From an uncultured Anaerolineales bacterium (GTDB lineage: Bacteria > Chloroflexota > Anaerolineae > Anaerolineales > RBG-16-64-43): DNA of 64,000 nt. Below, piece after piece: positions 45,866 to 62,516 of this stretch. Where the stretch lies: positions 85,579-149,578 of the forward strand of contig CAZFPL010000002.1 in NCBI GenBank assembly GCA_964521085.1, in the 5' to 3' direction. The translations under genes and the position numbers were made by a program. The notes beneath the pieces were generated by a model. The model was given only the letters and a program-made list of their open reading frames with translations. It was not told the origin of the DNA and ran no database searches. Numbering within the stretch: position 1 is the first letter of the stretch; every line of letters begins with the position of its first letter.

Positions 45866-46074
45866 AAGCGCTTTCTCCGCATTTAGAATACCCGATTATC
45901 GCAAGGCGTGCAATCAGAATCACAGCACTTAACCGCTTCATTTCCGGCGGGTATGAAAATTTATTCGTTCTTTATTGGAAAAAAAGTCCTCGGGAAAAGA
46001 CGCACCTGCATCGGCGGGAATCCGGACAGGGAACGGTTCACATAAAAAACCCGTTTACGTTTGCGGACTGTCCG

Positions 46075-47226: not shown

Positions 47227-47231
47227 CGTGC

Positions 47232-48401
47232 TCAATCACCATGCAGGAGTTCGGAATAATGGCCGATCATTTCCCTGCCGTAACGCTCCATCGAAAACGA
47301 TTCCCTGGCCAATCCGGCCAGCTCCATCCGGGAACGGTCTTCCAGAACGGGATCCTCCAGCGCGCGAAGCAACACGCCCTCTAACTCCTCTTCGGGTTGA
47401 GTCCTGCCGTCGAACGCAAAGCCGACGGGCCTGTGCCACCACTCCTCAAGCTCCCACACCTGTGAAGCCCAACCGAGGACCGGGGTCCCGCAGGCAAGAG
47501 CTTCCAGAAGCGCGACGGAGAATCCCTCCATCCGGCTGGGATTTACCAGCAGCTTGGCCTTGGAGACGATCGCCTTCACTTCCGGAGCGGACAACCGTCC
47601 ATGGAAAACGACCGGAAGGTCATTCCGGGCAACCAGTTCTTTGTATTTTTCTTCATCCGCTCCGCTCCCACACAGGTGCAACGGATGCCTGCGCAGGCGG
47701 TCGTTCCGGCGATACGCCTCGAGCAGCAGATCAATCCCCTTGGCGTCCTTCAAATTTCCGACGCTGACCAATCCATTTCGTTCCTGCGCCGGAACGACCT
47801 CTCCCGACAGAAATTCATCCGCAATCGGGTAGTAAAGGATCCAGGTCCGCTCTTCGGGATAATCGGACAAGAGGCAGACCTCCTCCTGCATGGACCGGCT
47901 CAAGAAAATAATACGGTCATATGTGTCCAAGCCCCGGCCGATACGACCCGAGTGGTGGGTCAGGATGGCGGGAGGCTTCATTCCAGTCAGGGGAAGCAGG
48001 ATGGGAATGTCGGATTCGGTTTGGTGGCAATGCAGGATGTCGGGTTGGAACCGATCGATGGCGATTCTCAATCCCTCGAGGAAAGCCATATCCTGAAAAA
48101 GGGAATGCCGATCCGTCCCGGGGAATTTCGCCATCCGCAAACGGATCGCATCCGGCAGAAAATGCCGCACGCTGGGGAGTGCAAGCGTCGGCAACACCTG
48201 GGCGGGAACAGACGGCGAAGCGGCGAATGCCATCGTCTCTCCCCAGATCCGCTCGGGCCACGGATACAGCGCGATCGTATGCCCCGCTTCCAGCAGAAAA
48301 CGCGTCAGCATCAGTGCCACGCGGGATTTTCCGCCCGCCCTCGGATTGATCCTTTCCGAGCGTAAATAAGTTTGAATCTGCAGTATGCGAAGGGCTTTCA
48401 T
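47232..48401 (-). CDS. GT4 family glycosyltransferase (paralog A2)
   Basis: MKALRILQIQ...NPRAGGKSR N-terminus and EGFSVALLEALACGTPVLGW motif. Confidence 0.85.
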   Translation of the reverse strand: MKALRILQIQTYLRSERINPRAGGKSRVALMLTRFLLEAGHTIALYPWPERIWGETMAFAASPSVPAQVLPTLALPSVRHFLPDAIRLRMAKFPGTDRHSLFQDMAFLEGLRIAIDRFQPDILHCHQTESDIPILLPLTGMKPPAILTHHSGRIGRGLDTYDRIIFLSRSMQEEVCLLSDYPEERTWILYYPIADEFLSGEVVPAQERNGLVSVGNLKDAKGIDLLLEAYRRNDRLRRHPLHLCGSGADEEKYKELVARNDLPVVFHGRLSAPEVKAIVSKAKLLVNPSRMEGFSVALLEALACGTPVLGWASQVWELEEWWHRPVGFAFDGRTQPEEELEGVLLRALEDPVLEDRSRMELAGLARESFSMERYGREMIGHYSELLHGD

Positions 48402-48423
48402 TGGAATGACAAGAGGAATGACC

Positions 48424-49599
48424 TTAACCTTCCTCCATCACCTCTTCGTAGGCCAGAAGGTTTTCGGTTGTATAGCGTTCAATGCAAAAGAATTTTCGGG
48501 CCCGCGCCGCAAGCGCTTTCCGGTAGGCCGGGGAGTGATTTTCCTTCCCCTTCATCCACTTTAATACCAATCCGGCAAGCTCATCCGGTTTTGCCTGCGC
48601 CGGATCGAAGCCGACCCCGCACTCCATGCGCAGCAGTTTCTGGGTTTCCTCCACCTGTGGCTTCCATCCGACGACCGCCGTCCCGCAGCATATCGCTTCC
48701 GCCAGGGCGAGGCTGAAGCCTTCCGCCGGACTTGGATTCACCAGCAGTTCCGAGCGCAGTAATTCCTTGCGAACCGATTCCGGCGCGACTCGCCCCAGAA
48801 ATAAAGCCGGAATTTTATGCTTCTTGGCGTACGCTTCGAAGCGCTCCTGTTCGGGACCGATCCCGCAGATCCGAAGCGGTATCTTGCGTAAGGCGGAAGA
48901 TTTGGCATACGCCGCCAGGAGATTCTGCAGTCCCTTGTCGAGCCGCAATCCGCCGACGAAAAGGATCCCGTTTCGATTTCCCGAAACGGGGATCGACATA
49001 TCGGAGAATATTCTTTCGACCGCCGGGCGGATCAATCGGGAGCGTTCCAGCAGAGAGGCATCGCGCCCGCACACCAGCGAGCGCAAGGCGTCCGACGCGA
49101 AAATGATTCTGCGGTACGACAGCAGGTGCTGGCCGGCGGTGTGGGTATGATGGGTGAGGAAAAGGGGGATCTTCAAATCCAGCGCGTGGTACAAGGGGGG
49201 AAAATCGGAAAACGACAGGTGGTTGTGGATGATATCCGGTTGGAAATCCTTGATGGCTTCGCTTAATCCGGCCAGGAACATCGAGTCCAAGCGGACCGAA
49301 TGCGCCGATCGGTCCGCCGCCGGCAGCCGCGAAGCCGCCCAGGAAAACCAGGCCAACTTCTTCATGGCGGGGATGCGCGCCGTCGGTATCAGACGGATGG
49401 GTTTTCCCGGATTGTCGATCCAATAGGGTTTTTCCAGAATGGGTTCCGGGAATGGAAAAATCGCCACCTCGTTTCCGCGGGCGGCAAGTTCGCGCGAAAG
49501 CTGAAGCGAAAGCCGCGATTTTCCCCCGGCGCGCGGATTCAACCCTTCGCCTTTCAAAAACGGGTGGATTTGCAGAATTTTTAAGGATGTTTGATCCAT
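48424..49599 (-). CDS. GT4 family glycosyltransferase (paralog A3)
   Basis: Start at ATG 49599 (MDQTSLKILQIHP), with AGGA 8 nt upstream. NPRAGGKSR and EGFSLALAEAICCGTAVVGW motifs. Confidence 0.8.
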   Translation of the reverse strand: MDQTSLKILQIHPFLKGEGLNPRAGGKSRLSLQLSRELAARGNEVAIFPFPEPILEKPYWIDNPGKPIRLIPTARIPAMKKLAWFSWAASRLPAADRSAHSVRLDSMFLAGLSEAIKDFQPDIIHNHLSFSDFPPLYHALDLKIPLFLTHHTHTAGQHLLSYRRIIFASDALRSLVCGRDASLLERSRLIRPAVERIFSDMSIPVSGNRNGILFVGGLRLDKGLQNLLAAYAKSSALRKIPLRICGIGPEQERFEAYAKKHKIPALFLGRVAPESVRKELLRSELLVNPSPAEGFSLALAEAICCGTAVVGWKPQVEETQKLLRMECGVGFDPAQAKPDELAGLVLKWMKGKENHSPAYRKALAARARKFFCIERYTTENLLAYEEVMEEG

Positions 49600-49609
49600 A
49601 AGGAACGTC

Positions 49610-50302
49610 CTACGATGCAGATGCATCCAGTCGCCGAATTCCATCCGGGCCTTCGTTCAGGAGCAGGTCGATGCTGGCCATGCCCGGCACGAAGGGGGAG
49701 AACATCTGGGAATATTCCGGATGCTGGAACTCATGATATTCCACGCCGATCCCCGCGTCTGTAAAAAGCGATTCCACGAGGTAGCCCCTTCCACTCGGTC
49801 CAGAGAGGTACACCGTGGCTCCCGTCTTGCGGCAAATATCCAGCAGAAGGTCGCTTTTCTTTCCGGCAACGTTCAAAGTCGACGCCCGCCGGGCGGGGGT
49901 GGATATGCCGAACGCGGACCACAGGAACTCGATCAGCGCGAGATTCAGATCGACCAGGCGAGTCCACGGCCGCCGGAAGAGATCCTCCAGCGCCGGCGCG
50001 TACATCTTCCAGTGCGGCGCCCGGGAGTAATTCTGCAGCAGGGTCCGGAAATACACTTCCGCCCAGCGGGTTTTGTTGTTGATTTCCACATCCAGAAAAG
50101 CCTGGCCGAATTTTCCCTTCGTCAGGACCGGGACATTAACCCAGCCCCACCCCTGCGGCGTACGGATCCGGTTCCGATTTTCGAAGTAGTTCTTTTTAAA
50201 CGCGACCGTGTCGAGAAAAATGAATTCGTCGGCTTTACGGGCCTTGTCGAGGTATCCAAGCCAGGGGAGATGCTCGGGTTGATGGATGGCTATCCGCGTC
50301 AT
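49610..50302 (-). CDS. WbqC family protein
   Basis: 230 aa. The N-terminal IAIHQPEHLPWLGYLDK and overall length fit the WbqC-like family seen in O-antigen clusters. Confidence 0.7.
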   Translation of the reverse strand: MTRIAIHQPEHLPWLGYLDKARKADEFIFLDTVAFKKNYFENRNRIRTPQGWGWVNVPVLTKGKFGQAFLDVEINNKTRWAEVYFRTLLQNYSRAPHWKMYAPALEDLFRRPWTRLVDLNLALIEFLWSAFGISTPARRASTLNVAGKKSDLLLDICRKTGATVYLSGPSGRGYLVESLFTDAGIGVEYHEFQHPEYSQMFSPFVPGMASIDLLLNEGPDGIRRLDASAS

Positions 50303-50305
50303 GCG

Positions 50306-50959
50306 CTATTTCAAGCCGAGATCCCACTGCCAACGCAGGGTTTCATAGCACTCCGCATGGCCCACGCCGATCTCATACCCGCGGTGAACTCCGCGGGCGA
50401 TCACCGCGTCCAGCCAGATATCGCCATACTTCTTGTATTGCGAGTCGTGCGCCAGGAGGGACTCGCGCTTGGCCTGGACCGCCTCCGGCGAAACAGCGAC
50501 GTACACCTGCGGACGGAACGGCGAGTAGGAGCGGCCGGAGGGAGTCATCGGTTCGTAGAAGAGGATCGAGTTGAAATAGCGGCAGGCTGAGATCGAGGCG
50601 AGGGATGTGGCGCGGTGGTCCTGGTGCGTATCGTGCGGCCAATGGGTGAGGACCACATCCGGCTTTAATTTGCGAAGCGGCACCTCGATGGCTTCCACCA
50701 CATGGAAATCGTACGGGATCTGCTTGGTGGGGAAATCCAGAATCTCCAACCCCACATTACCGAGCTTGCGCGCCGCCTCCCTGCCCTCCACCATCGCCTG
50801 GTCGTCCGTGCGGAAGACCCGCCCGTCCAAGTCAACGTAATCCGAATGGGAGAGGACGAGCATGTACGTTTCCCAGCCTTTGCGTGCGGCTTCAGCCAGC
50901 GTCCCCCCGCAGCCGATTTCGATGTCGTCCAGGTGCGCCCCGATCGCCAGGAGTCTCAT
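50306..50959 (-). CDS. PIG-L/LmbE family N-acetylglucosaminyl deacetylase
   Basis: AIGAHLDDIEIGCGGT (the AHPDD-like motif) and HQDH motifs. Confidence 0.8.
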   Translation of the reverse strand: MRLLAIGAHLDDIEIGCGGTLAEAARKGWETYMLVLSHSDYVDLDGRVFRTDDQAMVEGREAARKLGNVGLEILDFPTKQIPYDFHVVEAIEVPLRKLKPDVVLTHWPHDTHQDHRATSLASISACRYFNSILFYEPMTPSGRSYSPFRPQVYVAVSPEAVQAKRESLLAHDSQYKKYGDIWLDAVIARGVHRGYEIGVGHAECYETLRWQWDLGLK

Positions 50960-50962
50960 CGG

Positions 50963-51571
50963 TCATCCTTTCCGGTACAGGTACAGCGTGAAATCGTGGG
51001 GAAGGTAATCGTGCCGAAGGGTGACCCAGCGCGTGATGGCGTGCGCCTCAAGGAGCGCGCGTTCCGGCGAGCAGTAGAACATGTCATCCCGGAAATGCCC
51101 CGGATCGTAATAGGTACTGAGCATGTTGATCCCCACGCCGCGCTTGGCCACGTCGAACAGCCTGCGCAGGATGCGGAACACCCAGGCTTCCTGATCCTCA
51201 CGGAATTTTACGTTAAAAGTCCCGCTGATCAAAATGTAATCCGGCGCAGATTTTGGCTCGAAACTCTCAATATCGGCGCAGAAAAATTCGTCACCCGGGT
51301 GGCGGCGGCGCGCTTCTTCAATGAAGGCCGGCTGGAGATCCAGCCCCGTGTAACGCATCGCGATCCCCCTCTTCTCAAGGTAGGAGCGCAAGTCGCCGAA
51401 TCCACAGCCCACGTCCAGCACCGAAGCATTCGTCAGATCGCCGATTTGGGTCAGCACGTCGAACCGGACTTCCTGGGATTCCCGGCTGCCGATTCCCAGC
51501 GAGCGCGTATCGTACCCGTATTCCTGCCAGCGCTGTGCGTAAAAATCCAACACTTTGCGTTCTTCGCTCAT
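50963..51571 (-). CDS. Class I SAM-dependent methyltransferase
   Basis: VLDVGCGFGDL motif I. ATG 51571 with GAGG 5 nt upstream; the track start at 51577 is a GTG. Confidence 0.8.
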   Translation of the reverse strand: MSEERKVLDFYAQRWQEYGYDTRSLGIGSRESQEVRFDVLTQIGDLTNASVLDVGCGFGDLRSYLEKRGIAMRYTGLDLQPAFIEEARRRHPGDEFFCADIESFEPKSAPDYILISGTFNVKFREDQEAWVFRILRRLFDVAKRGVGINMLSTYYDPGHFRDDMFYCSPERALLEAHAITRWVTLRHDYLPHDFTLYLYRKG

Positions 51572-51592
51572 CGGCACCTCGGATCGCGTCCG

Positions 51593-52924
51593 CTACTTCC
51601 GCTCCCGGGACAAGGATGTTCCGGCCGCGGACCCCAGCGGACGGACCTCCGTCTCCCAGGGCAGAATCGGCGCCACCACGCCGGACCAGGCTCGCGGGTA
51701 ATCGCCTTTAACCGACCGGCCGGAACCGCTGTCCTCCACCCGGAAGGAGAGCAGATTCGACTCGCGGATAAAATAACGGCGGGGGACCAGCACGCGCAGC
51801 AACACGTCGACGGTGAACATTCCCTCGTTCAGGAAATCACCTGGGATCTTGCACACGCTGCGGTAGATCCCCTTTTTGCGCGACTTCCCGGTATAGGCCG
51901 AGTCGTGATTGGCGGCGGATTCCAATACGCAAATGCCATCGTCGTTGTGGAGCAGGATGATCGGCATAAACGGCTGCCCTGAATCGAACGCCCAATATTC
52001 CACCTCGATCTGCAACGGCTCGCGGATTTCGAATATCGAGCGCGGCTTGCCGTTGCGGTCGAGCAGGCGGACCCGCTTCAGGCGAGCCGTGGCATCCCCC
52101 GGCGCCTGGTCGGGCGAATCCCATTCTTTGTGGTCGGCGGCCGAGCGGTCGGCGTTCAGATAATGCGAGATGACTTCCGAGGTATCCCCGTCTGCGGAAA
52201 TCCGCCCTTCATCGAGCAGGATAACCCGCTGGCACAGGCGATGGATGGCGGTCATATTGTGGGAGACAAACAGCACCGTGCGGCCTTCTTTGCCGACGCT
52301 CTCCATCTTGCCCATGCATTTCTTCTGGAAGCGGTCGTCGCCCACGGCCAGGACTTCGTCCACCAGCAGGACTTCCGGATTCAGATGCGCCGCGACGGCG
52401 AACGCCAGCCGCAAGAACATCCCGCTGGAATAATGCTTGACGGGCGTGTCGATGAACTTTTCGATCTCGGAGAAGGCGACGATTTCATCGAAGCGCCGTT
52501 CGATCTCGGCATTGCGCATGCCCAGAATCGCACCGTTGAGGAAGATGTTCTCCCGTCCGGTAAGCTCCGGATGGAAGCCGGTTCCGACCTCGAGCAGCGA
52601 CCCGATCCGTCCGGAAAGCCGGACGCGCCCGACGGTCGGATCGGTGATCCGCGAGAGCACTTTCAGCAGCGTGCTTTTCCCCGCGCCATTGCGTCCGATG
52701 ATGCCGAGCACCTCCCCCTGGCGGACCTCGAAATTGATATCCTTCAAAGCCCAGATCATCTGCGCGGCGGGAATGGGCTCGCGCCGGATGATGCGCCGCG
52801 CCAAGCGAAAGGGCATTTTCGCGGCGTCGGCCAGCGTATCCCGGAGGGTTTTATATCCCTCCTGGAGGGCGCCGATGCGGTATTGCTTGCCGAGGTTTTC
52901 CACCCGGATGACGAGGTCGCCCAT
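51593..52924 (-). CDS. wzt: Polysaccharide ABC exporter ATP-binding protein with C-terminal extension (Wzt-type)
   Basis: Walker A GRNGAGKST, signature YSSGM, and Walker B LLVDE. A ~190-aa beta-rich C-terminal domain is consistent with a Wzt_C carbohydrate-binding domain. Confidence 0.85.
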   Translation of the reverse strand: MGDLVIRVENLGKQYRIGALQEGYKTLRDTLADAAKMPFRLARRIIRREPIPAAQMIWALKDINFEVRQGEVLGIIGRNGAGKSTLLKVLSRITDPTVGRVRLSGRIGSLLEVGTGFHPELTGRENIFLNGAILGMRNAEIERRFDEIVAFSEIEKFIDTPVKHYSSGMFLRLAFAVAAHLNPEVLLVDEVLAVGDDRFQKKCMGKMESVGKEGRTVLFVSHNMTAIHRLCQRVILLDEGRISADGDTSEVISHYLNADRSAADHKEWDSPDQAPGDATARLKRVRLLDRNGKPRSIFEIREPLQIEVEYWAFDSGQPFMPIILLHNDDGICVLESAANHDSAYTGKSRKKGIYRSVCKIPGDFLNEGMFTVDVLLRVLVPRRYFIRESNLLSFRVEDSGSGRSVKGDYPRAWSGVVAPILPWETEVRPLGSAAGTSLSRERK

Positions 52925-52925
52925 G

Positions 52926-53777
52926 TCACACCACGTCCGCGAAGTTTCGTTCCATGCGCCGGAAATAAAAGGTGCCGGTGATAAGCAACACCATGGCGAC
53001 GACGGCGGAGACTCCGACCATCAGGCCCGGAGGAGACCCGCTTCCCAGAAGCGCCCAGCGGAACCCGTCGAGTACGCCGGCCATCGGGTTGAGCCCGTAG
53101 ATCGTCCTCCACGGTTCGTCAAGAAGACTACTGGGGTAGACGACTGGGCTGATAAACATCCAGACCTGGAGCAGGAACGGGACCATGTAGCGGATATCCC
53201 GGTACTCCACGTTCAGCGCCGAAAGCCAGAGCCCCACCCCAAGGGCGGTGATGAACGCCAAAAGAAGAAACAACGGCAGCCAGACCACGTTGATCGTGAT
53301 GGTTATACCAAAGGCCAGTACCATCCCGACCAGGACGACAAAGGCGAGTGCGAAATCCACCAATCCCGAAAGCACGCTGGCGATCGGCATCACCAGGCGC
53401 GGGAAGAAGACCTTCTTGATCAATTGCGAATTTCCGACCAGGCTGTCTGAGGATTGGGCCAAGCCGTACGCGAAGAATGCCCAAGGGACGGTTCCGGCGG
53501 CGCTGAACACCTCATAGGGCAGGCCCGCGGTTCCGGAGGAGATTTTCGCCAGCCTTCCGAAGAACAGGCTGAACACGACCATCGTCAGGAAGGGCTGGAG
53601 GATCGCCCACGCCGCGCCGAGCACGGTCTGCTTATAACGGACTTTGATATCCCGCCAGGTAAGGAAAAACAACAGCTCGCGGTACGCCCAGACCTCGCGC
53701 AGCTTAAGGTTCACCCATCCGCGCGAGGGGACGATTTCAGTGACGGGACCGACAAATTCGCTTTGCGATGATTCCAT
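52926..53777 (-). CDS. wzm: Polysaccharide ABC exporter permease (ABC-2 type, Wzm/TagG-like)
   Basis: 283 aa. RDIKVRYKQTVLGAAWAILQP signature and six hydrophobic segments. Confidence 0.85.
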   Translation of the reverse strand: MESSQSEFVGPVTEIVPSRGWVNLKLREVWAYRELLFFLTWRDIKVRYKQTVLGAAWAILQPFLTMVVFSLFFGRLAKISSGTAGLPYEVFSAAGTVPWAFFAYGLAQSSDSLVGNSQLIKKVFFPRLVMPIASVLSGLVDFALAFVVLVGMVLAFGITITINVVWLPLFLLLAFITALGVGLWLSALNVEYRDIRYMVPFLLQVWMFISPVVYPSSLLDEPWRTIYGLNPMAGVLDGFRWALLGSGSPPGLMVGVSAVVAMVLLITGTFYFRRMERNFADVV

Positions 53778-53800
53778 TCGATTTATTAAACCTGCAGGTT

Positions 53801-53835
53801 AAGATACAGACGATGGACCATAGACTATGGACCAT
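53801..53835. repeat. Left arm of ~35-bp inverted repeat flanking the four-helix-bundle gene
   Basis: aagatacagacgatggaccatagactatggaccat. It matches the reverse complement of 54326-54360 at 31 of 35 positions (counted by hand). Confidence 0.8.
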
Positions 53836-53842
53836 GGCCGAC

Positions 53843-54217
53843 CTATGTTCGGGACGCATTCACCTTTCCTTGGACCGTTTTTCTAAAGGATTGCATTTTC
53901 TTGATCAGCGTCACCATTCGGTTTTCCATCTTCTCACTATCTTCGGACAGATATTTTCTTCGTTGAGCAATTCGATGGCAGGCGCTGGATTCTTCGAGCG
54001 ATCGAATCGCGTAACCTAGAAATCGCACCTGCTCCGAGTCGGTCTGTCCCGTGGATCCTTCGGCAATATTAAGTGCAATCGATGTCGCCGCGCGAATCCA
54101 CTGACTTCGCAGATTATATAATTCCTCTTTCGGAAGACATTCGGTCACTCGGTATACATCGTCGAGGTAATCAAGCGCCAGCTTCCACACCTCGAGATTC
54201 TCGAACTTGAAAGCCAT
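53843..54217 (-). CDS. Four-helix-bundle protein (23S rRNA intervening-sequence protein / Avd family)
   Basis: 124 aa. The N-terminal FENLEVWKLALDYLDDVYRVT...LRSQWIRAATSIALNIAEG is the hallmark of this family. GGGGGA SD. The sequence is visibly more A/T-rich than its flanks. Confidence 0.85.
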   Translation of the reverse strand: MAFKFENLEVWKLALDYLDDVYRVTECLPKEELYNLRSQWIRAATSIALNIAEGSTGQTDSEQVRFLGYAIRSLEESSACHRIAQRRKYLSEDSEKMENRMVTLIKKMQSFRKTVQGKVNASRT

Positions 54218-54325
54218 GGATCCCCCTTTTTATCATCGATTTCCCTACTATGGATAGATGATACCACGGGCAGTGTTCAATCCCTCGATTGTCGTGCCTC
54301 AGCCATCGAATAGAAACCATCGACA

Positions 54326-54360
54326 ATAGTCCATGGTCTATAGTCCATCGTCTCTATCTT
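54326..54360. repeat. Right arm of the inverted repeat; overlaps the last codons of the HAD gene
   Basis: atagtccatggtctatagtccatcgtctctatctt. It covers the HAD stop codon (54338-40) and the last 7 codons. Confidence 0.8.
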
Positions 54361-54997
54361 CAAGCCAGGATTCCATCTCCGTAAGATCTTTCACCTTAGC
54401 AACAGACAATTTATCGAAGTTCGTCTCCGTCTCGCGGGCCAGGAAACGCGTGCCCGCTTCGCGCGCGGCATCGTAATCGCTCATGCCGTCGCCGACCATC
54501 AGCACTTCCTGCGGGGAAAGCGCGTGCCGCGCCATCACGTCGCGCAGGATGTCCGCCTTCAACCGCGGGGTGCCCCACAATTCCTCGAACCAGGCGCCCA
54601 TTCCGCGTTTGGCGACGATGAGTTCCAACTCCGCCTGCGGGGTTCCCGAACCGACAATCCGCACCACCCGCCCTCTCAATCCGAGAAGCAAATCCTCCGC
54701 GCCCGGCACTTGCGGGCAGCGGAAAATCCGCTCACGGGTGAGGCACTCGAAATCGGCGCTTACCTGCTTGCGGATTTTCTCGGTGTAAGGCAGCCCCAGG
54801 ATGTTGCGCTGAATGTGCTCGAACTTGACGTACCGGGAAATACCGGCCTGGGCAATGTGGTAGTCGCGGATCGCCTGAACCTTCTCCGGGTAATCCGCGT
54901 ACAGTTCCATGAAAGCCTCGGTCTTGATATTGGCGGATTCCAGGATCACGCCGTCGAAATCGAAAACGATTGCGCGCAGGGAATCAATTCGCTTCAA
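54338..54997 (-). CDS. HAD-IA family phosphatase
   Basis: IVFDFDGV (motif I), the VGSGT region, and GDGMSDYDAA (motif IV). The likely start is TTG 54997, with GAGGA 7 nt upstream; the track GTG at 55024 lacks an SD. Confidence 0.75.
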   Translation of the reverse strand: MKRIDSLRAIVFDFDGVILESANIKTEAFMELYADYPEKVQAIRDYHIAQAGISRYVKFEHIQRNILGLPYTEKIRKQVSADFECLTRERIFRCPQVPGAEDLLLGLRGRVVRIVGSGTPQAELELIVAKRGMGAWFEELWGTPRLKADILRDVMARHALSPQEVLMVGDGMSDYDAAREAGTRFLARETETNFDKLSVAKVKDLTEMESWLEDRDDGL

Positions 54998-55046
54998 CGC
55001 AGGTTCCTCTCGAAGATCACGCACCGGAAAGGAAGGCGCGTGAAAT

Positions 55047-55766
55047 CTATAATTTCTTCACGTCCGGATAATGGGCCAGCCACCACTCGGAAAAACCGGC
55101 GTCGAGGTGGGTGTGAATATCCCGGCCGGTTACCCAATTGCGCAGGATCGGCGCCGACCGCTTTCCCATCCACCACCACGGGCTGGGCCCGTCGCGCCGC
55201 TGGACGCATTCTTTTCGGAAGGCCCATACGCCCTGGTCGTAGTAATACGCCGCCGGGTACGACTGGCGTTCGGTCGAGGCCTGGCGGTTGGGGTCTCCAT
55301 ATGGGCGCAGCAACCCATCGACGATCTCAAGCGAGCGCAGCGGGTGGTCGTCGGCCGCCTGCCATACGCTCATGACAGAATCCAGGTCCGGACGGTCATC
55401 GAGCATCCCGAGCGCCCGGTCCAGCAGTTCGCCGTCGAGCATCACGGTGTTCCCCAGGAGGAGAACCACGTTGCGCAAATCCTTTTCGCGCGCGTCGGCG
55501 TATTCCACGGCATGCTTGATCACCTCGCCGTGGTTGATGTGATCGCCGCACAACCCCTCGGGCCGGACGATGATCTCGCAGCCGTTCTCGCGCCCGACCT
55601 GCATAACCTCCGGCGAATCGGTGGAGATGTACGTCTTGGAAATGCGTTTCGCCTCCCGGGCGGCCTGGATCGGGTAGTAGACCAGCGGTTTTCCCGCGAG
55701 ATCCATCACATTCTTATTGAGGATCGATTTGCTTCCGGCGCGGGCGGTGATGATGGCAACGTTCAC
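55047..55766 (-). CDS. NeuA/KdsB-fold cytidylyltransferase (CTP_transf_3 family)
   Basis: VAIITARAGSKSILNKNVMDLAGKPLVYYPI matches the acylneuraminate cytidylyltransferase N-terminus. The likely start is GTG 55766, with AGGAG 6 nt upstream; the track start at 55820 is a TTG. Confidence 0.8.
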   Translation of the reverse strand: MNVAIITARAGSKSILNKNVMDLAGKPLVYYPIQAAREAKRISKTYISTDSPEVMQVGRENGCEIIVRPEGLCGDHINHGEVIKHAVEYADAREKDLRNVVLLLGNTVMLDGELLDRALGMLDDRPDLDSVMSVWQAADDHPLRSLEIVDGLLRPYGDPNRQASTERQSYPAAYYYDQGVWAFRKECVQRRDGPSPWWWMGKRSAPILRNWVTGRDIHTHLDAGFSEWWLAHYPDVKKL

Positions 55767-55859
55767 GGCACTCTCCTGCAGGTTTTTTTCCTGCGAATTC
55801 AACGGGGTAAATTTTATCAAAAGCCGAGCGCTCGCTTCGCGAGGGCAACCGATCGCTCA

Positions 55860-57653
55860 TCAACGCTTAATCGCCCGGGCGCACACCTCGATCGCGAACC
55901 GCTCGTCAAGGGTATCAAGTTCGCGCCGGGAAAACTCCTCCGCCGTCAACCCGCGCATCGCCGCGGCGGCGAGGAGCGAGTTGCCGTAAGCCCGGACCTG
56001 GACATTTTCGCTTCCGAAGGTTCCCCCCACCAGCCCGGCGAATCCCTCAGGGGTGAAGCGCCAGAGCTCATGCCACCAGGGCTCGATCATATCCGTCATC
56101 GGCACCGCCGCCAGAAGCACGCCGCCGGGGCGGAGGATGCGCCGTATCTCTGAGAGAATCGCCGGCAGATCCTTCACGATATGCAGGACGCGCGTGCAGA
56201 TGATGCAGTCGTAATACCCGGAGGGAATGTTGTTGGGCCGGCTCAGGTCGGCGATGATGGTCGCGTGCTTGCTGTGGCCGGACCCTTCCTTGTGCAGAAT
56301 ATCGAGTTTTTGGATGTTCGGCCCGCCGAAGCGAGAAGCGTATTGGTCGTTCTGAAATTCCAGCACCCGGCCGCGCACGTCCGCACGGAATTCCCCGAAG
56401 AAACGGTCGATGTAGTAGCGATGCACGGGCGTGCCGCGTTCGTTTCCGGAAACGACCGAGAGCGGCGATAGTCCATTCCCGAGCCGGAACCGCGCCCAGA
56501 GTGCGGTCAGAATCGGAATGCGCAGCTGCTTTCGGCGAACCTGCCCGGACCGGATATTCTGCCAGCGGTATGCCAGCCACTGGAAAACCCGTTTCGGCAG
56601 CAGCGGCAGGCGATTCCAATCGGTGACCGCTTTGGGATCCTCGCGGATCTTCTTTTCCGCCCCCGCGTATCCCTTCGGAGTGCGGGGAGACCGGACGGAC
56701 TCCATATGCTCCTCGAGCCGGCGTGAAAATTCCCGTCCGCCCGCGTCACCGGGGGTGACGCGCGGAATCCAATACCGGTCGGAGCCGCCGTGGACCGCCG
56801 CTTTGACATTGGCGCAGGCGTAGTTGAACCCCAATTCCCGCGCCAGGCGCAGCGTGACCGTCGTCTCCGATTCGCGGCTGCCGTACGGATAGGACAGCGC
56901 ACGGACCGGCCGCCCGAGCAGCTTTTCCAGCGCGTGTCGGGAATCTGCCATTTCAGTTTTTTGAGAGGTATCTTTCAGTGCGGCCAGCCAGGCGTGGCGC
57001 ACGGTGTGCGCGCCGATCGATATCAAACCGTTGGCTGCCAGCCGGCTGCATTCCCGTGCCGTCAGCGGGCGGACATCGGGGCGCGGTGCCGCCGGGCGGC
57101 ATCGGGCTTCCCTGCAAATTCGATCCATCTCCGCCCGGATTTCATCCGGCGGGAAAGCGCGCAACGCATAATGGAGAATCCCGAAGGCATCCTCCCGCGG
57201 CATGCCCAGATAAAACCGCATCCGCGCATCCTCCGGTAGTCCTTTCCACTCAGCGGGCTCGCGCTTGGATTCCCAGACAATTCGCTGCAATTCATCCCAC
57301 CAGAATTCCTTTTTACCGTCCAGATAACCGGAGGAGATAAAAACGGTTGCGGGGATTTTCCAGCGTTCCAGGGCGGGAAGCGCGCCGAAGAGAACTCCGG
57401 CATAGCCGTCATCGAAGGTCACGGCGACCGATCTGCGCGGAAGGTTTCCCTGCGCCAGACCCCCGACCATTTCGTCCAGGGTCACCGGATTCCAAGAACG
57501 GCGCAACTCCTCCATTTGCGATGCGAACAGCTTCTCCGGCACGCTGACGTGAAGCGGGTCCGGGGATTGGCGGCCGACCTGGTGATAGGCAAGCACTACT
57601 CCGTGGGGGGAAAGGATTTCGGCCAGCCGGTTAATTCTTTCCTTAACGCCCAT
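55860..57653 (-). CDS. Bifunctional polysaccharide deacetylase (CE4/NodB) - SAM methyltransferase fusion
   Basis: 597 aa. The N-terminal half carries VTFDDGY and IGAHTVRH. The C-terminal ~200 aa carries a class I MTase-like core (RVLEF..., DCIICTRVLHIVKD, LRPGGVLL). Confidence 0.75.
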   Translation of the reverse strand: MGVKERINRLAEILSPHGVVLAYHQVGRQSPDPLHVSVPEKLFASQMEELRRSWNPVTLDEMVGGLAQGNLPRRSVAVTFDDGYAGVLFGALPALERWKIPATVFISSGYLDGKKEFWWDELQRIVWESKREPAEWKGLPEDARMRFYLGMPREDAFGILHYALRAFPPDEIRAEMDRICREARCRPAAPRPDVRPLTARECSRLAANGLISIGAHTVRHAWLAALKDTSQKTEMADSRHALEKLLGRPVRALSYPYGSRESETTVTLRLARELGFNYACANVKAAVHGGSDRYWIPRVTPGDAGGREFSRRLEEHMESVRSPRTPKGYAGAEKKIREDPKAVTDWNRLPLLPKRVFQWLAYRWQNIRSGQVRRKQLRIPILTALWARFRLGNGLSPLSVVSGNERGTPVHRYYIDRFFGEFRADVRGRVLEFQNDQYASRFGGPNIQKLDILHKEGSGHSKHATIIADLSRPNNIPSGYYDCIICTRVLHIVKDLPAILSEIRRILRPGGVLLAAVPMTDMIEPWWHELWRFTPEGFAGLVGGTFGSENVQVRAYGNSLLAAAAMRGLTAEEFSRRELDTLDERFAIEVCARAIKR

Positions 57654-57773
57654 CGATCAACCCGCGTCCTTTCCCATTTCGACTTCCCGAAGTGTAAATG
57701 GAGATACACCGATTATCCATGTAGAAGGGGATATACGCCAGTTCACGGGGATCGGCGGGAATTGCGAACGCAA

Positions 57774-57806
57774 GGAGAATCCGGGTGGCTTGCAAGCCCG
57801 GTCTCC
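57774..57806 (-). other. GC-rich imperfect hairpin directly after the SDR stop codon (intercistronic structure or weak terminator)
   Basis: ggaga..ccggg...cccgg-tctcc pairing around a ggcttgcaagcc palindrome. No U-tract follows. Confidence 0.3.
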
Positions 57807-58688
57807 TCACGTTGTATGTTCTTCCCGGGAGATTTGTTCGAGGACCTGGAGAATCCCCTGGCCGAAATCGACATACAAATTCGACGTCAGTTTTCTTCCC
57901 ACCCGCGGGTGGAACTGGTAGGGAGTGATCCGGTAGTGCCCGTCGGGGATTTCCGGCCGGGCGTACTCCACCTGGATCTCGCGGCCGAGGATTTCCGAGA
58001 ACATCGTGAACAAGTCGCGGGCGCGCATCGGGTAGTGGCCGGTGATGATCAGATGCTGGTTGGCGTATTCGGAAGCAAGAATGTCGACGGAGAGGCGGGC
58101 TGCATCGGCCACATGGATGTATTCCCGCGAATCTTCCGGTTCGCCGTAGTAGCGGATCTTCCCGCTTCGCGCGGCTTCGCGCAGAAGGCGGTATAGGCCG
58201 TTGCTCTCATCGGCCCGCGGGCCGTACAGGCTGCCGAATCGCAGGATCGTGTACTCCAGTCCGTACCGGTGCTGGTACTCTTCGATATACGCTTCGCACG
58301 CCTGCTTGCTGGCGCGGTAGAAGGAGCCCTCACTGCTGTACACATAGATGGTGCTGGAAAACACGAAGCGCTTGACCTTGGCGCGCCGGGCGGCTTCGAG
58401 CACGTTGACCGTGCCCTCCACATTGACCTTCACCGTCTCGCGCGGAAGCTCGCGCGCCTTGTTGAGGTCGGAAAGCGCGGCGTAATGGTAGACGTAGTCC
58501 GCGCCTTCGATCGTCCGGCACAACAGATCGAAATCCTCCAGGCTTCCGATCACTTGCTTTTGATCCGCCGGAAGCGCGGCGGCCTTCTTTTGATCGAAGA
58601 TCGTCACGCTATGCCCGCGGCATGCGAGTTCATCCGCCAGATGGCTGCCGAGGAATCCCGCCCCGCCGGTGACGACCGATACCGTCAT
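57807..58688 (-). CDS. NAD-dependent epimerase/dehydratase (SDR)
   Basis: Start at ATG 58688 (MTVSVVTGGAGFLGSHL), forming an ATGA overlap with the upstream stop. YRASKQACE is the YxxxK motif. Confidence 0.85.
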   Translation of the reverse strand: MTVSVVTGGAGFLGSHLADELACRGHSVTIFDQKKAAALPADQKQVIGSLEDFDLLCRTIEGADYVYHYAALSDLNKARELPRETVKVNVEGTVNVLEAARRAKVKRFVFSSTIYVYSSEGSFYRASKQACEAYIEEYQHRYGLEYTILRFGSLYGPRADESNGLYRLLREAARSGKIRYYGEPEDSREYIHVADAARLSVDILASEYANQHLIITGHYPMRARDLFTMFSEILGREIQVEYARPEIPDGHYRITPYQFHPRVGRKLTSNLYVDFGQGILQVLEQISREEHTT

Positions 58689-59620
58689 TTCGCTTTTTCT
58701 TTCTGGAAGAAGTCGATCACTTTCTGCGCCGCTTCCACCTCCATGCCGATCCGGCATTCCAGGGCATACGATCCGATGTGCGCAGTCAGCACGATGTTGT
58801 CCAATTCGGAAAGGGGGCCTTTATACGGTTCGGCGGCAAATACGTCCAGGTACGCACCGCCCAACTTGCCGGAGCGCAGAGCCTCGAGCAGCGCGGTTTC
58901 GTCGACCCATCCGCCGCGCGCTGCATTTACCAAAAGCGCGCCTGGTTTCATCTTCGCAAACTCCGGTGCGCCCAGCAGCGCGGTTTTCGTCGAACCCGAG
59001 AGATGCAAGGAAAATACATCCGCCTGGGGCAGGGCTTCGTCGAGTGAAACGTATCGGACCGCGTGCTGGCTGGCGAACAAATCATCGTGCACCGGATCGA
59101 CCGCCAGAATATGGACCGAAAACGGCTGCATCAGCCGCACCAGCGCCTTGCCGATGCGCCCCAACCCGATGATGGCGACGGTTTTCCCGCGCAGCAGCCT
59201 ACCCATCGGTTTGGAGAATTCCCCGCGGCGGACGGAGGCGTCGGATTGCGGGATGCGCCGCAACAGCGCAAGCAGCCCGCCGAGGGCGAGCTCGGCCACG
59301 CCATTGGTCGGTCCATCGGGCGTGTTGAACACCGATATGCCGCGCTCCTTGGCGTATTCCCGGTCAACGTTGTCGACCGCCGTGCCGACGCGCGAGATGA
59401 CCTTCAGGCGGGGAAGCTGGGAAAGCACCTCGCGGTCAAGCGCCTCGGTGCCGGCGATCAGGCCGTCCGCGTCGCGGAGCAGTTCGACCGTTTCGGGTTT
59501 CGTCAGCTTGCGGCCATGCGGATTGAAGATCAGTTCGAAGCCGGCCAGACGGAGATCGTCGACCGGTTCGCTGCTTTCTTTTCCGAACGAGGACGTGGTG
59601 ATGGCGATTTTTGGGCTCAC
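58685..59620 (-). CDS. D-isomer-specific 2-hydroxyacid dehydrogenase (PGDH-like)
   Basis: GKTVAIIGLGRIGKAL NAD-binding site, NAARGGWVDE motif, and the TAHIGS catalytic-His region. Start is GTG 59620 (GGAG 8 nt upstream) or GTG 59629. Confidence 0.8.
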   Translation of the reverse strand: MSPKIAITTSSFGKESSEPVDDLRLAGFELIFNPHGRKLTKPETVELLRDADGLIAGTEALDREVLSQLPRLKVISRVGTAVDNVDREYAKERGISVFNTPDGPTNGVAELALGGLLALLRRIPQSDASVRRGEFSKPMGRLLRGKTVAIIGLGRIGKALVRLMQPFSVHILAVDPVHDDLFASQHAVRYVSLDEALPQADVFSLHLSGSTKTALLGAPEFAKMKPGALLVNAARGGWVDETALLEALRSGKLGGAYLDVFAAEPYKGPLSELDNIVLTAHIGSYALECRIGMEVEAAQKVIDFFQKEKAK

Positions 59621-59625
59621 GAGGT

Positions 59626-60609
59626 TCACTCCGTGGAAATCTGGCTAGCCCAGGATTGCTCGGCCCGGTACCAATCGACGAGGTTGTGAACGCCGTCTTC
59701 GAGTTTGGTCTGCGGTTCCCAATTCAGGAGTCTTCGGGCTTTGCTGATATCCGCCCAGGTGGCGGGCACGTCCGCCGGATGGGCGGGCTTTTGTTCGATG
59801 ACGGCCTTCTTGCCGGTGAATTCTTCGACCATCGCGATGATGTCGCGGATTTTCGCCGGACGGTCGCCGCCCAGGTTGATTGTCTCGAAGCCGAGCGGTT
59901 TGACAGCGGCAATCGTTCCGCGGGCGATATCGTCGACGTAGGTGAAATCGCGTTCCTGGCTGCCATCCCCGAAAAGCACGATCGGCTTGCCCTCGGAGAT
60001 GCGCTGCACGAAACGGAACATGCTCATATCCGGGCGGCCGGCCGGGCCGAACACCGTGAAGTAGCGAAGCACGGTGACATCCATCCCGTACAGGAAATGC
60101 CAGGTATAGCACATCGCTTCGGCGGCCTTCTTCGAGGCGGCGTACGGGGAAAGCGGTTTGTCGGTGGAGGCATCTTCCTTGAAGGGGCGCGGATTCTCCG
60201 CGCCATACAGGCTCGAGGTGGAGGCGAGGACGAATTTCTTCACCCCGCCCTGGCGGGCCAGCTCAAGGAGGTTCAGCGTTCCGGAGACGTTGGTCTCGAA
60301 ATACACATATGGATTCTCCGTGCTCTGCCTGACTCCGGCGCGCGCCGCCAGGTTGATCACCGCATCGAGCACGTTGCCGTCGTGCTTGTTCCACAGCGTC
60401 TCGACCACCACCCGGTCGGCCAGATCTCCGCGCGAGAAGGCAAACCCTGGAGCAGCCTGCAGTTTCTGCAACCGCCACTGCTTCAGGCGCACGTCGTAGG
60501 CGTTGTTCAGGCTGTCGATTCCCACAACCTGATGGCCTTGCTCCAGGAGCAGCGCGGTGACCCGCGCGCCGATGAACCCGGCCGCACCCGTGACCAGATA
60601 GCGAGCCAT
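59626..60609 (-). CDS. UDP-glucuronate 4-epimerase-like SDR
   Basis: Start at ATG 60609 (MARYLVTGAAGFIGARV). IDSLNNAYDVRLKQWRL is typical of uronate epimerases. YAASKKAAE is the YxxxK motif. The longer track ORF overlaps the upstream gene. Confidence 0.8.
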   Translation of the reverse strand: MARYLVTGAAGFIGARVTALLLEQGHQVVGIDSLNNAYDVRLKQWRLQKLQAAPGFAFSRGDLADRVVVETLWNKHDGNVLDAVINLAARAGVRQSTENPYVYFETNVSGTLNLLELARQGGVKKFVLASTSSLYGAENPRPFKEDASTDKPLSPYAASKKAAEAMCYTWHFLYGMDVTVLRYFTVFGPAGRPDMSMFRFVQRISEGKPIVLFGDGSQERDFTYVDDIARGTIAAVKPLGFETINLGGDRPAKIRDIIAMVEEFTGKKAVIEQKPAHPADVPATWADISKARRLLNWEPQTKLEDGVHNLVDWYRAEQSWASQISTE

Positions 60610-62516
60610 TACAGCCGGACCACTTTCGGGCTTTGCTTGCCGTCCGCACCCAGGGCGTTGCGGGTGTCGACCACCAGCCGGGCGAGTTCGAGGATCCTCT
60701 TCCAATGGTAGACATCGTGGTTGGTGGTAATCACCACGCAATCCGCTTGCTGCACAGCACCTTCCAAATCCGCTACGCTCTTGAGATGGAATGATTCGTG
60801 GCGCACTTCGGGAACGTAGGGGTCGTGGTAATCCACGACGGCGCCCTTCTTCCGAAGCAGGCCGATCACATCCAGGGCGGGCGATTCACGCAGGTCGGAG
60901 ACGTTCGGTTTATACGCCACGCCGAGCACGAGGATCCGGCTGCCGTTGATCGCCTTGCGATGCTTGTTAAGCGCATCCTGGACCTTGCCCACCACATAGC
61001 GGGGCATGTTTGTGTTGATCTCGCTGGCCAGCTCGATGAAGCGGGCGTTGTAATTGACCGCTTTCAGTTTCCAGGAAAGGTACAACGGATCGATGGGGAT
61101 GCAGTGCCCGCCCAGACCGGGGCCGGGGGTGAATTTCATATACCCGAAAGGTTTGGTGGCGGCGGCGTCGATAATCTCCCACACATCGAGTCCGAGGTGA
61201 TCGCACATGATGGCCACTTCGTTGACCAGCCCGATATTCACGGCGCGAAACGTGTTCTCCAAAAGTTTCGACATTTCCGCGGCATCGGCGGAGGAGACCG
61301 GCACCAGCGTCTTGATCGCCCGCCCGTAATAGGCAAGGGCGGTTTCCAGGCATGCCGGCGTGATCCCGCCGATCACCTTGGGGGTATTGACCGTGGTCCA
61401 ATCCTCCCGTCCGGGATCGACCCGTTCCGGGGAAAAGGCCAGGAAAATATCCTTGCCCACTTTCAAACCGCGACTCTCGATTTTCGGGAGCAGGAGTTCG
61501 CGGGTTGTTCCCGGGTAGGTCGTGGACTCGAGTACGATCACCATCCCGGGATGGAGGTACTTGGAAACTTCTTCGGTCACATTGACGATGAAGGAAAGAT
61601 CCGGATCGCCCGTCTTGCGCAGCGGGGTGGGCACGCAGATGGAGAGGGCGTCCAGCGTTTTTACCTGGGAGAAATCGGTGGTGGCATGGAGGGCGCCCTT
61701 GCGGACCAGGGAAGCGACATGGGAGGAAGGGATATCCTCGATATAGGATTTTCCCTTGTTGAGCATCTCGATCTTTCTCGAATCCACATCGATCCCGACC
61801 ACCGAATATCCGGCGCGGCCGAATACATCCACCAGCGGCAAGCCGACATACCCCAGCCCGATCACGCCGACGCGGGCTTTGCCGCTCCGGAACTTTCGGA
61901 TCAGATTCTGGGCTGTCTCCCCGCCCTTGGTTGACATCACATCCTTCTTTGCCATGCCTGCCTTCTCCTTTGCATTCCATCGGTTCTGCAGAAATTGGCC
62001 GCCGAAGCCGGCTGCCGATCCCAACAAAGCCGCGGCTAGAATCTTCCAAAAAAGAAAATTTTCCGTCCGTTTGGCAGAAGCCGGGGCTGATTCGTAGCAG
62101 ACGGCGCCCGACATCGAAGCCTTTTCTTCCAACGCCGCGCACAACGCCTGTGCCCAGGCAAGCGCCCGGTCCGCCGCGCGGTACGGATCAGTATCGCGGA
62201 TGTTCAACCGGAGGACGCCGTCTTCCAGCAACTCCTCCACTTCTGATCCGCGCAAGAAATTGTTGCGGGTTAAATTGTACCCGGAGACGACCGGCCGGGA
62301 GACAGCGGCGGACGCAACCTCCGGCTCCTTCGCGAGCGCCTCCGCCTCGTCGGCGGAGTAGCCCCCCGTGCTTAAAATCCGAATCCCAGCCTGATATTCC
62401 GGCAGCTGGGCGAGCACTGCCAGCAGGGCAAGGATTGCCGAGACCGCACCGACGACCAGCGCCGGCAGGATCCCGTTTCGAATGTCCCATCCTTGGATGG
62501 GCGCTGCATTCTTCAT
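60609..62516 (-). CDS. Nucleotide-sugar 6-dehydrogenase (WbpA/TviB/WecC-like) with an in-frame N-terminal two-TM Wzz/PCP-like domain
   Basis: 635-aa ORF with no internal stop. The C-terminal ~430 aa carries GLGYVGLP, CVPTPL and GGHCIPIDP. The N-terminal ~187 aa has TM1 (ILPALVVGAVSAILALLAVLA), a hydrophilic segment, and TM2 (FLFWKILAAALLGSAAGFGG). An alternative internal start is ATG 61955, with AAGGAG upstream. Confidence 0.8.
   Translation of the reverse strand: MKNAAPIQGWDIRNGILPALVVGAVSAILALLAVLAQLPEYQAGIRILSTGGYSADEAEALAKEPEVASAAVSRPVVSGYNLTRNNFLRGSEVEELLEDGVLRLNIRDTDPYRAADRALAWAQALCAALEEKASMSGAVCYESAPASAKRTENFLFWKILAAALLGSAAGFGGQFLQNRWNAKEKAGMAKKDVMSTKGGETAQNLIRKFRSGKARVGVIGLGYVGLPLVDVFGRAGYSVVGIDVDSRKIEMLNKGKSYIEDIPSSHVASLVRKGALHATTDFSQVKTLDALSICVPTPLRKTGDPDLSFIVNVTEEVSKYLHPGMVIVLESTTYPGTTRELLLPKIESRGLKVGKDIFLAFSPERVDPGREDWTTVNTPKVIGGITPACLETALAYYGRAIKTLVPVSSADAAEMSKLLENTFRAVNIGLVNEVAIMCDHLGLDVWEIIDAAATKPFGYMKFTPGPGLGGHCIPIDPLYLSWKLKAVNYNARFIELASEINTNMPRYVVGKVQDALNKHRKAINGSRILVLGVAYKPNVSDLRESPALDVIGLLRKKGAVVDYHDPYVPEVRHESFHLKSVADLEGAVQQADCVVITTNHDVYHWKRILELARLVVDTRNALGADGKQSPKVVRL

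Follow-up and report, generated by a model that had tools for sequence, protein, structure and literature searches.

Four-helix-bundle proteins of the S23p family have been known since the 1990s from intervening sequences (IVSs) in 23S rRNA, and IVSs that bear an open reading frame (ORF) occur in Leptospira, Coxiella burnetii, Brucella and Haemophilus. To our knowledge, no function has been found for the family since that discovery. Here we analyze a member that lies in an mRNA: a 124-aa gene bracketed by inverted arrays of 7-nt units within a polysaccharide operon of an uncultured Anaerolineales bacterium (contig CAZFPL010000002.1, positions 85,579 to 149,578). This stretch of 64,000 nt is hereafter called the window, and coordinates refer to it.

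Among the rRNA elements, the Coxiella IVS carries three tandem GACAGAT units and a GACAGAA upstream of its S23p ORF and has a 28-bp terminal stem (PMC4990558). RNase III cuts it in vitro, and the mapped ends lie within the stem, the 5′ cut falling where the first repeat begins (PMC4990558). We obtained a second rRNA example by tblastn against plasmid records: a family member in an unannotated stretch of the Azospirillum lipoferum 4B plasmid AZO_p2. The stretch is a 23S rRNA gene (Rfam LSU, 1122 bits), and the IVS arms read GACGGAT GACAGAG GACGGAG GACAGAA and, on the other side, ATCCGTC CTCTGTC TTCTGTC ATCCGTC. We take the insert to lie in the helix-45 region, a placement that comes from our recognition of the neighboring rRNA and not from any tool. 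GACNNNN arms as an IVS feature are a proposal of the present analysis, made from these two rRNA examples.

The cassette between the HAD gene and wzm

The ORF occupies 53843–54217 on the minus strand. Its product matches both PF05635 (23S_rRNA_IVP; E = 2.9e-28, 98.6 bits versus a cutoff of 33.8) and TIGR02436 (“four helix bundle protein”; E = 5.8e-29, 100.5 bits versus a cutoff of 24). An earlier reading of the letters alone (the original prediction) had placed the gene in the family of four-helix-bundle IVS proteins, and both profile scores, above their curated cutoffs, bear this out. The closest solved relative is Xanthomonas XCC0516 (PDB 2GSC; E = 5.5e-14 over residues 5–108), which is described as a pentameric ring (PMC4990558). 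A helix-2 motif, Q..R...S...N..EG, reads QWIRAATSIALNIAEG in the window protein, aligns with distant members of the family and is kept across them; the Azospirillum IVS protein has it too.

The gene is enclosed by inverted repeats. The original prediction had reported 35-nt arms agreeing at 31 of 35 positions, with two of the four mismatches forming U.G pairs in the minus-strand RNA, and a hand check gave the same counts. A repeat search extends the arms to 41 nt (53801–53841 and 54320–54360, 85% complementary). Both arms turn out to be built from four 7-nt units in tandem, a feature that the first reading had not noticed. On the sense strand, the upstream array (54325–54352, minus strand) reads GACGATG GACTATA GACCATG GACTATT, and the downstream array (53809–53836, minus strand), which begins 6 nt past the stop codon, reads CATGGTC CATAGTC TATGGTC CATCGTC. 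The order of the 560-bp insert is thus (GACNNNN)4, leader, ORF, (NNNNGTC)4. As had been claimed, the upstream arm overlaps the end of the HAD-family hydrolase gene: 54320–54360 covers its stop codon (54338–54340) and its last seven codons, EDRDDGL. The 28-nt core of the arms has only two sites in the window at up to three mismatches, versus 0 expected in 100 shuffles, and the cassette is single in these 64 kb. One other heptamer-phased array occurs in the window (8378–8398, three GTC units); about 0.5 are expected in 64 kb, and it may be due to chance.

We folded the minus strand of 53780–54380. The minimum free energy structure includes a long-range helix between 54319–54373 and 53788–53842. 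It comprises 46 pairs (5 G.U) and has a mean pair probability of 0.94; the whole fold has z = −3.7 relative to shuffles, and the stem folded alone reaches −67.8 kcal/mol. The 5′ half of the predicted helix includes the arm 54320–54360. The 3′ half includes the arm 53801–53841, and its end lies 10 nt short of the wzm start codon. The fold therefore agrees with the proposal that the arms could form a long stem around the ORF in the minus-strand RNA.

The layout matches the ORF-bearing 23S IVSs down to the repeat unit, and the idea of an IVS architecture placed in an mRNA holds in this respect. Common to both are the protein family, an ORF enclosed by terminal inverted repeats with a stem of ~28 bp or more, GACNNNN arms (four units in Azospirillum, three to four GACAGAT-type units in Coxiella) and an insert of ~430–560 nt. 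Unlike the rRNA elements, the window cassette lies in a polycistronic mRNA, outside the rRNA location by which IVSs are defined: no Rfam family reached threshold anywhere in the window, and the neighbors of the cassette are protein-coding. In addition, purifying selection acts on its ORF, which has a strong Shine-Dalgarno sequence, whereas the Coxiella ORF has a poor one and is decaying (PMC4990558). RNase III excision is demonstrated for the rRNA elements only. Judged by its sequence, the window element is an IVS-type cassette outside rRNA, in an mRNA, and is the same element as the ORF-bearing 23S rRNA IVSs.

The cassette lies, as originally described, between the HAD gene (54338–55024) and wzm (52926–53777), all on the minus strand. 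The wzm gene encodes an ABC-2 permease and is the first gene downstream, followed by wzt; the HAD gene, upstream, has its C-terminal tail EDRDDGL* encoded by the upstream array. They belong to a minus-strand polysaccharide operon that runs as one unit from ~62.5 kb down to 43.9 kb and contains sugar-nucleotide enzymes, a cytidylyltransferase, a deacetylase-methyltransferase, three tandem GT4 glycosyltransferases, WbqC and PIG-L. A Pfam scan of 16 operon genes across 43877–62516, which left out a gene-sized ORF at 58685–59629, returned only sugar-nucleotide, glycosyltransferase, methyltransferase, deacetylase, hydrolase and ABC-transporter classes. The three GT4 genes (46075–49644) are paralogous and carry a 101-nt direct-repeat family of ~70% identity. 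The G+C content of the cassette had been judged by eye to be below that of its neighbors, and 200-nt windows confirm it: 0.455–0.51 over 53700–54400, versus 0.59–0.65 in the flanks and an average of 0.599 for the whole window.

Two conserved signals precede the start codon on the minus strand. The Shine-Dalgarno-like AAAGGGGGA (54221–54229) lies 4 nt 5′ of the ATG and is conserved in orthologues; this ribosome-binding site is strong, and the 124-aa protein is itself conserved. The motif CCCGTGGTATCATCTATCC (54252–54270) lies in the loop, ~35–50 nt 5′ of the ATG, and resembles an extended −10 promoter element (TGnTATCAT). A simple promoter scan found nothing on the minus strand; it did not call the leader motif, and no −35 element was found. 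Likewise, a simple terminator scan predicted none on the minus strand in the region, so read-through from the HAD gene is expected.

Orthologous loci and the family-wide layout

The identical protein with identical arms was found on three further assemblies. The same HAD–wzm junction is shared by more distant relatives (loci L004, L007, L009–L012, L089, L090, L091 and L098), all Anaerolineales or Chloroflexota metagenome-assembled genomes, in agreement with the origin of the window; their proteins are 63–84% identical. In all of them, a GAC array directly follows HAD residues W-L-E and a GTC array follows the stop of the ORF, but the units differ. The HAD tail beyond WLE is different in every orthologue, and L091 has changed on both sides relative to the window (GACCATC/GACGATC upstream, GATGGTC/GATCGTC downstream). 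Absence of the repeats from orthologous loci would have spoken against the original prediction; we found the opposite. The leader motif CCCGTGGTATCATCTATCC forms an invariant block in an alignment (A1) and is present in the window and in nine of these loci (L004, L007, L009, L010, L011, L012, L089, L090 and L098).

We estimated dN/dS, the ratio of nonsynonymous to synonymous divergence, for the window versus L004 or L009 and obtained 0.07–0.08, with dS of 1.3–1.7. These values indicate that the 124-aa protein is under strong purifying selection and that synonymous sites are saturated. Because the non-coding arrays nevertheless persist, the arrays appear to be maintained as well. Protein and arms of the cassette thus both appear to be under selection, and comparison of the loci indicates that the cassette is old and vertically inherited in this operon. 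Two of the relatives show local duplications: L004 (3376–3650) has three and L007 (3370–3520) two tandem copies of a ~90-nt unit that joins the final ~45 nt of the ORF to the GTC heptamer arm behind it.

We also looked in relatives for an empty HAD–wzm site. The sole ORF-less junction, L094/L095 (HAD 81% and Wzm 80% identical), lacks the ORF and both arms and has a 145-nt spacer (L094, 2844–2988). The spacer starts with two residual GAC heptamers. It contains 47 nt homologous to the cassette leader, from GCACATGGTATCATCC to a Shine-Dalgarno-like GGAAAGG, now fused to wzm, and the motif CCCGTGGTATCATCTATCC is retained there; the alignment score of this leader, 35, only equals the best of 200 shuffles. 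Because it keeps the cassette leader, we read the junction as a loss and not as an empty target. The sequence is suggestive of a secondary loss of ORF and arms that left a deletion remnant, so the search yielded no virgin site.

The suggestion that the cassette is mobile stands in one sense only. Most pairs of very similar four-helix-bundle proteins have common flanks. However, L032 (Thermoflexus) and L078 (Anaerolineae) have proteins that are 86% identical, in flanks that are unrelated on both sides, and like unit types (GACCACA/GACGACA upstream, YGTGGTC downstream); a group with GACGAAG units (L020, L028 and L080) behaves in the same way. Matching ORF and arms in unrelated flanks, for which L032/L078 is the strongest case, indicate that they moved as one unit, on an evolutionary scale. 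At the window locus, on the other hand, the cassette is single in the window, occupies the HAD–wzm junction in about ten relatives as well and is ancient (dS 1.3–1.7).

To see how general the layout is, we built a profile from 37 relatives and retrieved 80 loci from distinct genomes, of which 72 had enough flank for analysis. Chloroflexota account for most of them, with smaller numbers from Acidobacteriota, relatives of Bacteroidota (Balneolaceae, Ignavibacteria) and Deltaproteobacteria. In 59 of the 72 loci, the 150 nt upstream of the ORF contain three or more GAC-phased units and the 150 nt downstream three or more GTC-phased units; the reverse arrangement occurred in 6. The modal unit number is four (37 of 67 upstream arrays, 40 of 62 downstream). 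In the median, the downstream array begins 9 nt past the stop codon and the upstream array ends 35 nt before the start codon. Array density is ~6 per kb near the ORFs versus 0.24 per kb more than 500 nt away.

The units are constrained beyond what the search demanded. Positions 1–3 are GAC by construction, whereas positions 4 and 5 were free; S occupies position 4 in 88% of units and R position 5 in 99%, giving the consensus GAC-S-R-N-N. The variable bases differ among loci (GACGAAG, GACCACA, GACGGTG, GACCGCC and others), yet the last four bases of the units are 69% complementary between the two arms of a locus; exchanging arms among loci lowered this value to 47%, with a maximum of 52% over 200 permutations. 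Local alignment of one flank to the inverse of the other gave a score of 30 or more for 45 of the 72 loci and for none of 875 position-shifted controls (medians 32 and 16; the window scores 52). RNAduplex energies did not discriminate between true flank pairs and controls (−60.7 versus −57.0 and −50.5 kcal/mol), since GC-rich sequences of 110 nt will always yield some long, loopy duplex. The ORF has a lower G+C content than its flanks in 71 of the 72 loci (mean difference 10.5 points), so A/T-richness is a property of the family and no evidence of recent transfer.

Several loci depart from the simple layout. L037 (1250–2110; Acidobacteriota) has very long arrays of 17–22 units, and on each side of its ORF a GAC array precedes a GTC array; local hairpins could therefore compete with a long-range stem. 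In L040 (1090–1210) and L055 (1095–1215), an ORF-less copy of the layout, four GAC units, ~65 nt and four GTC units, is embedded in the coding sequence of the gene that precedes the cassette. From that gene to the four-helix-bundle ORF, the order in both loci is four GAC units, a terminator hairpin, TATAAT, a GTC-phased stretch (four units in L040, degenerate in L055), a Shine-Dalgarno sequence and the ATG. In many Chloroflexota, the cassette recurs directly past the stop of a gene ending in ...IIRSRARAKRQW* (L013, L015–L018, L022–L024, L031, L033, L057 and L086), possibly a permease; a second recurrent site follows a gene ending in ...WEPQAMF(L)LGYP.... Both look like conserved, vertically inherited insertion sites.

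More distant members occupy other contexts. Two four-helix-bundle genes, in L131 (1448–1907; 29% identical) and L151 (3811–4329; 38% identical), lie between wzm and wzt of similar operons, with inverted GAGCAAT/ATTGCTC units that are clear in L151 and weaker in L131; they are two independent wzm–wzt insertions. Proteins on cyanobacterial plasmids, ~30% identical, again lie between inverted heptamer arrays with various cores. L173, on plasmid pANA02 of Anabaena sp. 90, sits between cas6 and cas4, with a long (GACAGGT)n array upstream and (ACCTGTC)4 downstream. Stanieria (L174) has GGCAGAR upstream and YTCTGCC downstream, Geminocystis (L172) GGGAARA upstream and TYTTCCC downstream, two Nostoc 7120 loci (L168 and L169) a YTCTGCC array downstream only, and Nostoc punctiforme (L170) AGGAGTC upstream, with reversed polarity. 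The helix-2 motif is invariant whatever the core of the array (for example GAG, GGCAGAG or GGGAAAA) and so cannot set the core; we rejected it as the determinant of array specificity.

Proposed processing of the operon mRNA and competing explanations

On balance, we consider it probable that the 560-bp insert is an IVS-type S23p cassette, a four-helix-bundle gene with its own leader between inverted arrays of four heptamers, vertically inherited in an operon spacer and processed as follows. Where transcription continues from the HAD gene through the cassette, the two arrays of the transcript would pair into a double-stranded RNA helix of 28 to 46 bp. By analogy with rRNA, RNase III would cut this helix and release the four-helix-bundle message, and the cut would detach the precursor part of the mRNA, upstream, from the exporter part (wzm–wzt), downstream. 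The invariant phase and the GAC-S-R core of the units imply recognition by a protein, so the arrays would be recognized sequence-specifically beyond pairing, with the cassette's own protein as the most plausible candidate. The effect on the operon would be a tolerated side-effect of a passenger element, not that of a dedicated regulator of polysaccharide export.

An operon-processing site with RNase III cleavage in this mRNA is plausible by the same analogy. Intercistronic RNase III sites, in the early mRNA of phage T7 and in operon leaders, likewise consist of a long double-stranded stem in a polycistronic transcript, but those stems enclose no gene and have no heptamer periodicity. In the leader, GTGGTATCATC looks like an extended −10 element and, since it survives in the ORF-less L094, may drive wzm–wzt.

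A number of observations weigh against processing of this kind. Arm mismatches comprise 38 G.U and 75 A.C, so that G.U is not in excess on the sense strand, and the two orientations, sense and antisense, give duplexes of similar energy (35 versus 37 loci, p = 0.76); selection for pairing of the sense RNA is thus not demonstrated. The arms are imperfect (69–93% complementary). In L034, L040, L055 and L076, a terminator and a promoter lie between the GAC array and the ORF, so the ORF's own transcript cannot form the enclosing stem. If TGGTATCAT is a promoter, transcripts from it would likewise lack the 5′ arm in the window, and translation of the HAD gene, which enters the 5′ arm, may melt it transiently. 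Finally, we know of no need of RNase III for GAC periodicity.

Alternatively, the arrays would be RNA-binding sites for the encoded oligomer, forming an autoregulatory or protective ribonucleoprotein with one GAC per subunit, as in TRAP, and with RNase III inessential. Avd, a homologue, forms pentamers and is reported to bind nucleic acid and to act on a structured RNA. Relatives of the cassette protein are toroidal pentamers (2GSC; PMC4990558), the unit core is conserved beyond the needs of pairing, and the strong Shine-Dalgarno sequence together with a dN/dS of 0.08 indicates that the protein is made and matters. The numbers do not fit as well: the modal array has four units, and a fifth conserved heptamer to match a pentamer was looked for in the family arrays and not seen. 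The Q..R...S...N..EG face, moreover, is unchanged where the cores differ (GAG, GGCAGAG, GGGAAAA). We regard such RNA binding without RNase III as possible but doubtful.

The arrays could instead act in DNA, as terminal or sub-terminal sites at which a protein binds to move, copy or recombine the cassette, in which case RNA pairing would be incidental. The terminal inverted repeats recall transposons and miniature inverted-repeat transposable elements, and GAC-S-R cores with a preferred number of four resemble arrays of protein-binding sites. The lack of a sense-strand G.U excess and the equal strand energies would be natural for a DNA site. So would the joint occurrence of ORF and arms in unrelated contexts (L032/L078 and the GACGAAG group L020/L028/L080), and the range of unit numbers, from 3 to 22, and the tandem duplications in L004 and L007 suggest ends that are prone to recombination. 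However, no transposase, integrase, recombinase or nuclease gene accompanies the cassettes examined, no direct target-site duplication is evident at the cassette ends in the window, and the cassette has long persisted vertically at this locus. In the rRNA elements, furthermore, the arms have been demonstrated to function as RNA, in a stem that RNase III cleaves (PMC4990558). We therefore think a DNA-level role unlikely.

PF05635 proteins also resemble Avd, the homologous four-helix-bundle protein of diversity-generating retroelements (PMC10053308), and the gene might be an avd or its remnant. This is very improbable. No reverse transcriptase was found in the 16 scanned operon genes (43877–62516; the ORF at 58685–59629 lies outside the scan), and there is no template/variable pair in the window, where direct repeats of at least 45 nt occur only in the paralogous GT4 genes and at 10775/11348. 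Relatives of the subfamily were absent from the viral contigs and phage records searched, so a retroelement accessory gene at this locus is effectively refuted. A chance match or assembly artefact around an ordinary small gene, for which nothing speaks except that the sequences come from metagenome assemblies, has a negligible probability and is excluded by the 0 arm matches expected in shuffles and by the recurrence of the structure in three independent assemblies of the identical gene and in dozens of other genomes.

Heptameric repeats elsewhere and a possible cassette class

Heptameric arrays have been described before in a different setting. Rehm et al. 2015 (PMC4692102) reported GGGAATC arrays in Xanthomonas and GGGGA(C/T)T arrays in Nostoc with a preference for four units, and read them as G-quadruplex formers without linking them to S23p proteins. 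These heptameric simple sequence repeats (SSRs) and the cyanobacterial short tandemly repeated repetitive sequences (STRRs) resemble the arrays described here: tandem 7-nt units, four preferred, are located between co-oriented genes near starts and stops, are often in convergent (inverted) pairs and are transcribed (PMC4692102). The Xanthomonas arrays also have the same polarity, with GATTCCC upstream and GGGAATC downstream on the sense strand, whereas Nostoc-type arrays have the opposite polarity, as in L170. Unlike the cassette arrays, those of Xanthomonas and Nostoc are mostly ORF-less and number hundreds per genome, and the window units (GACNATN), unlike G-quadruplex arrays, are not G-rich.

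We found no description of the family-wide heptamer layout in the full-text literature searched, in which only a note on strain variation in Coxiella and the G-quadruplex paper touch on it. Four-helix-bundle genes have also been reported inside cas operons (PMC3936711; PMC10910872), and these reports fit a passenger cassette. The cassette in L173 may explain the published CRISPR-cas “associations” of the family.

A wider proposal can be made from these parallels, one that we put forward tentatively and hold to be doubtful as a whole. PF05635 genes with inverted heptamer arrays would form one widespread, unrecognized class of cassette inserted in transcribed DNA (rRNA helices, operon spacers and CRISPR-cas loci), in which the protein recognizes the arrays and ORF-less arrays, such as cyanobacterial STRRs and Xanthomonas GGGAATC, are non-autonomous derivatives. 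The comparison is with repetitive extragenic palindromic (REP) sequences and REP-associated tyrosine transposases (RAYTs), where a short structured intergenic repeat likewise goes with one protein family flanked by the same repeats. It is a functional analogy only: the protein folds and the repeats are unrelated, RAYTs are transposases of known catalytic mechanism, and nothing here shows four-helix-bundle proteins spreading arrays.

If true, the proposal would give a function to a family of thousands (8,410 cluster representatives at 50% identity in a single-sequence search) and would account at once for three orphan observations of long standing. The rRNA elements appear to show one of the contexts in which a general cassette inserts, a cassette recognizable by its nucleic-acid signature of four GAC-phased heptamers per side. 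This links them to the four-unit bias of heptameric repeats (PMC4692102) and to the four-helix-bundle genes in cas operons (PMC3936711; PMC10910872). The shared signature also makes function testable, by heptamer binding of the protein and by RNase III cutting of operon mRNAs.

Annotation pipelines could flag such cassettes and so avoid start-codon calls that run into the arrays. Many database members (P0127, P0134, P0136, P0139, P0145 and others) are 150–200 aa long, with homology beginning only at residue 30–67, which suggests that their starts were called too far upstream and that heptamer arrays were translated as a result. Starts too far upstream were likewise present in our initial ORF calls of L043, L060 and L081.

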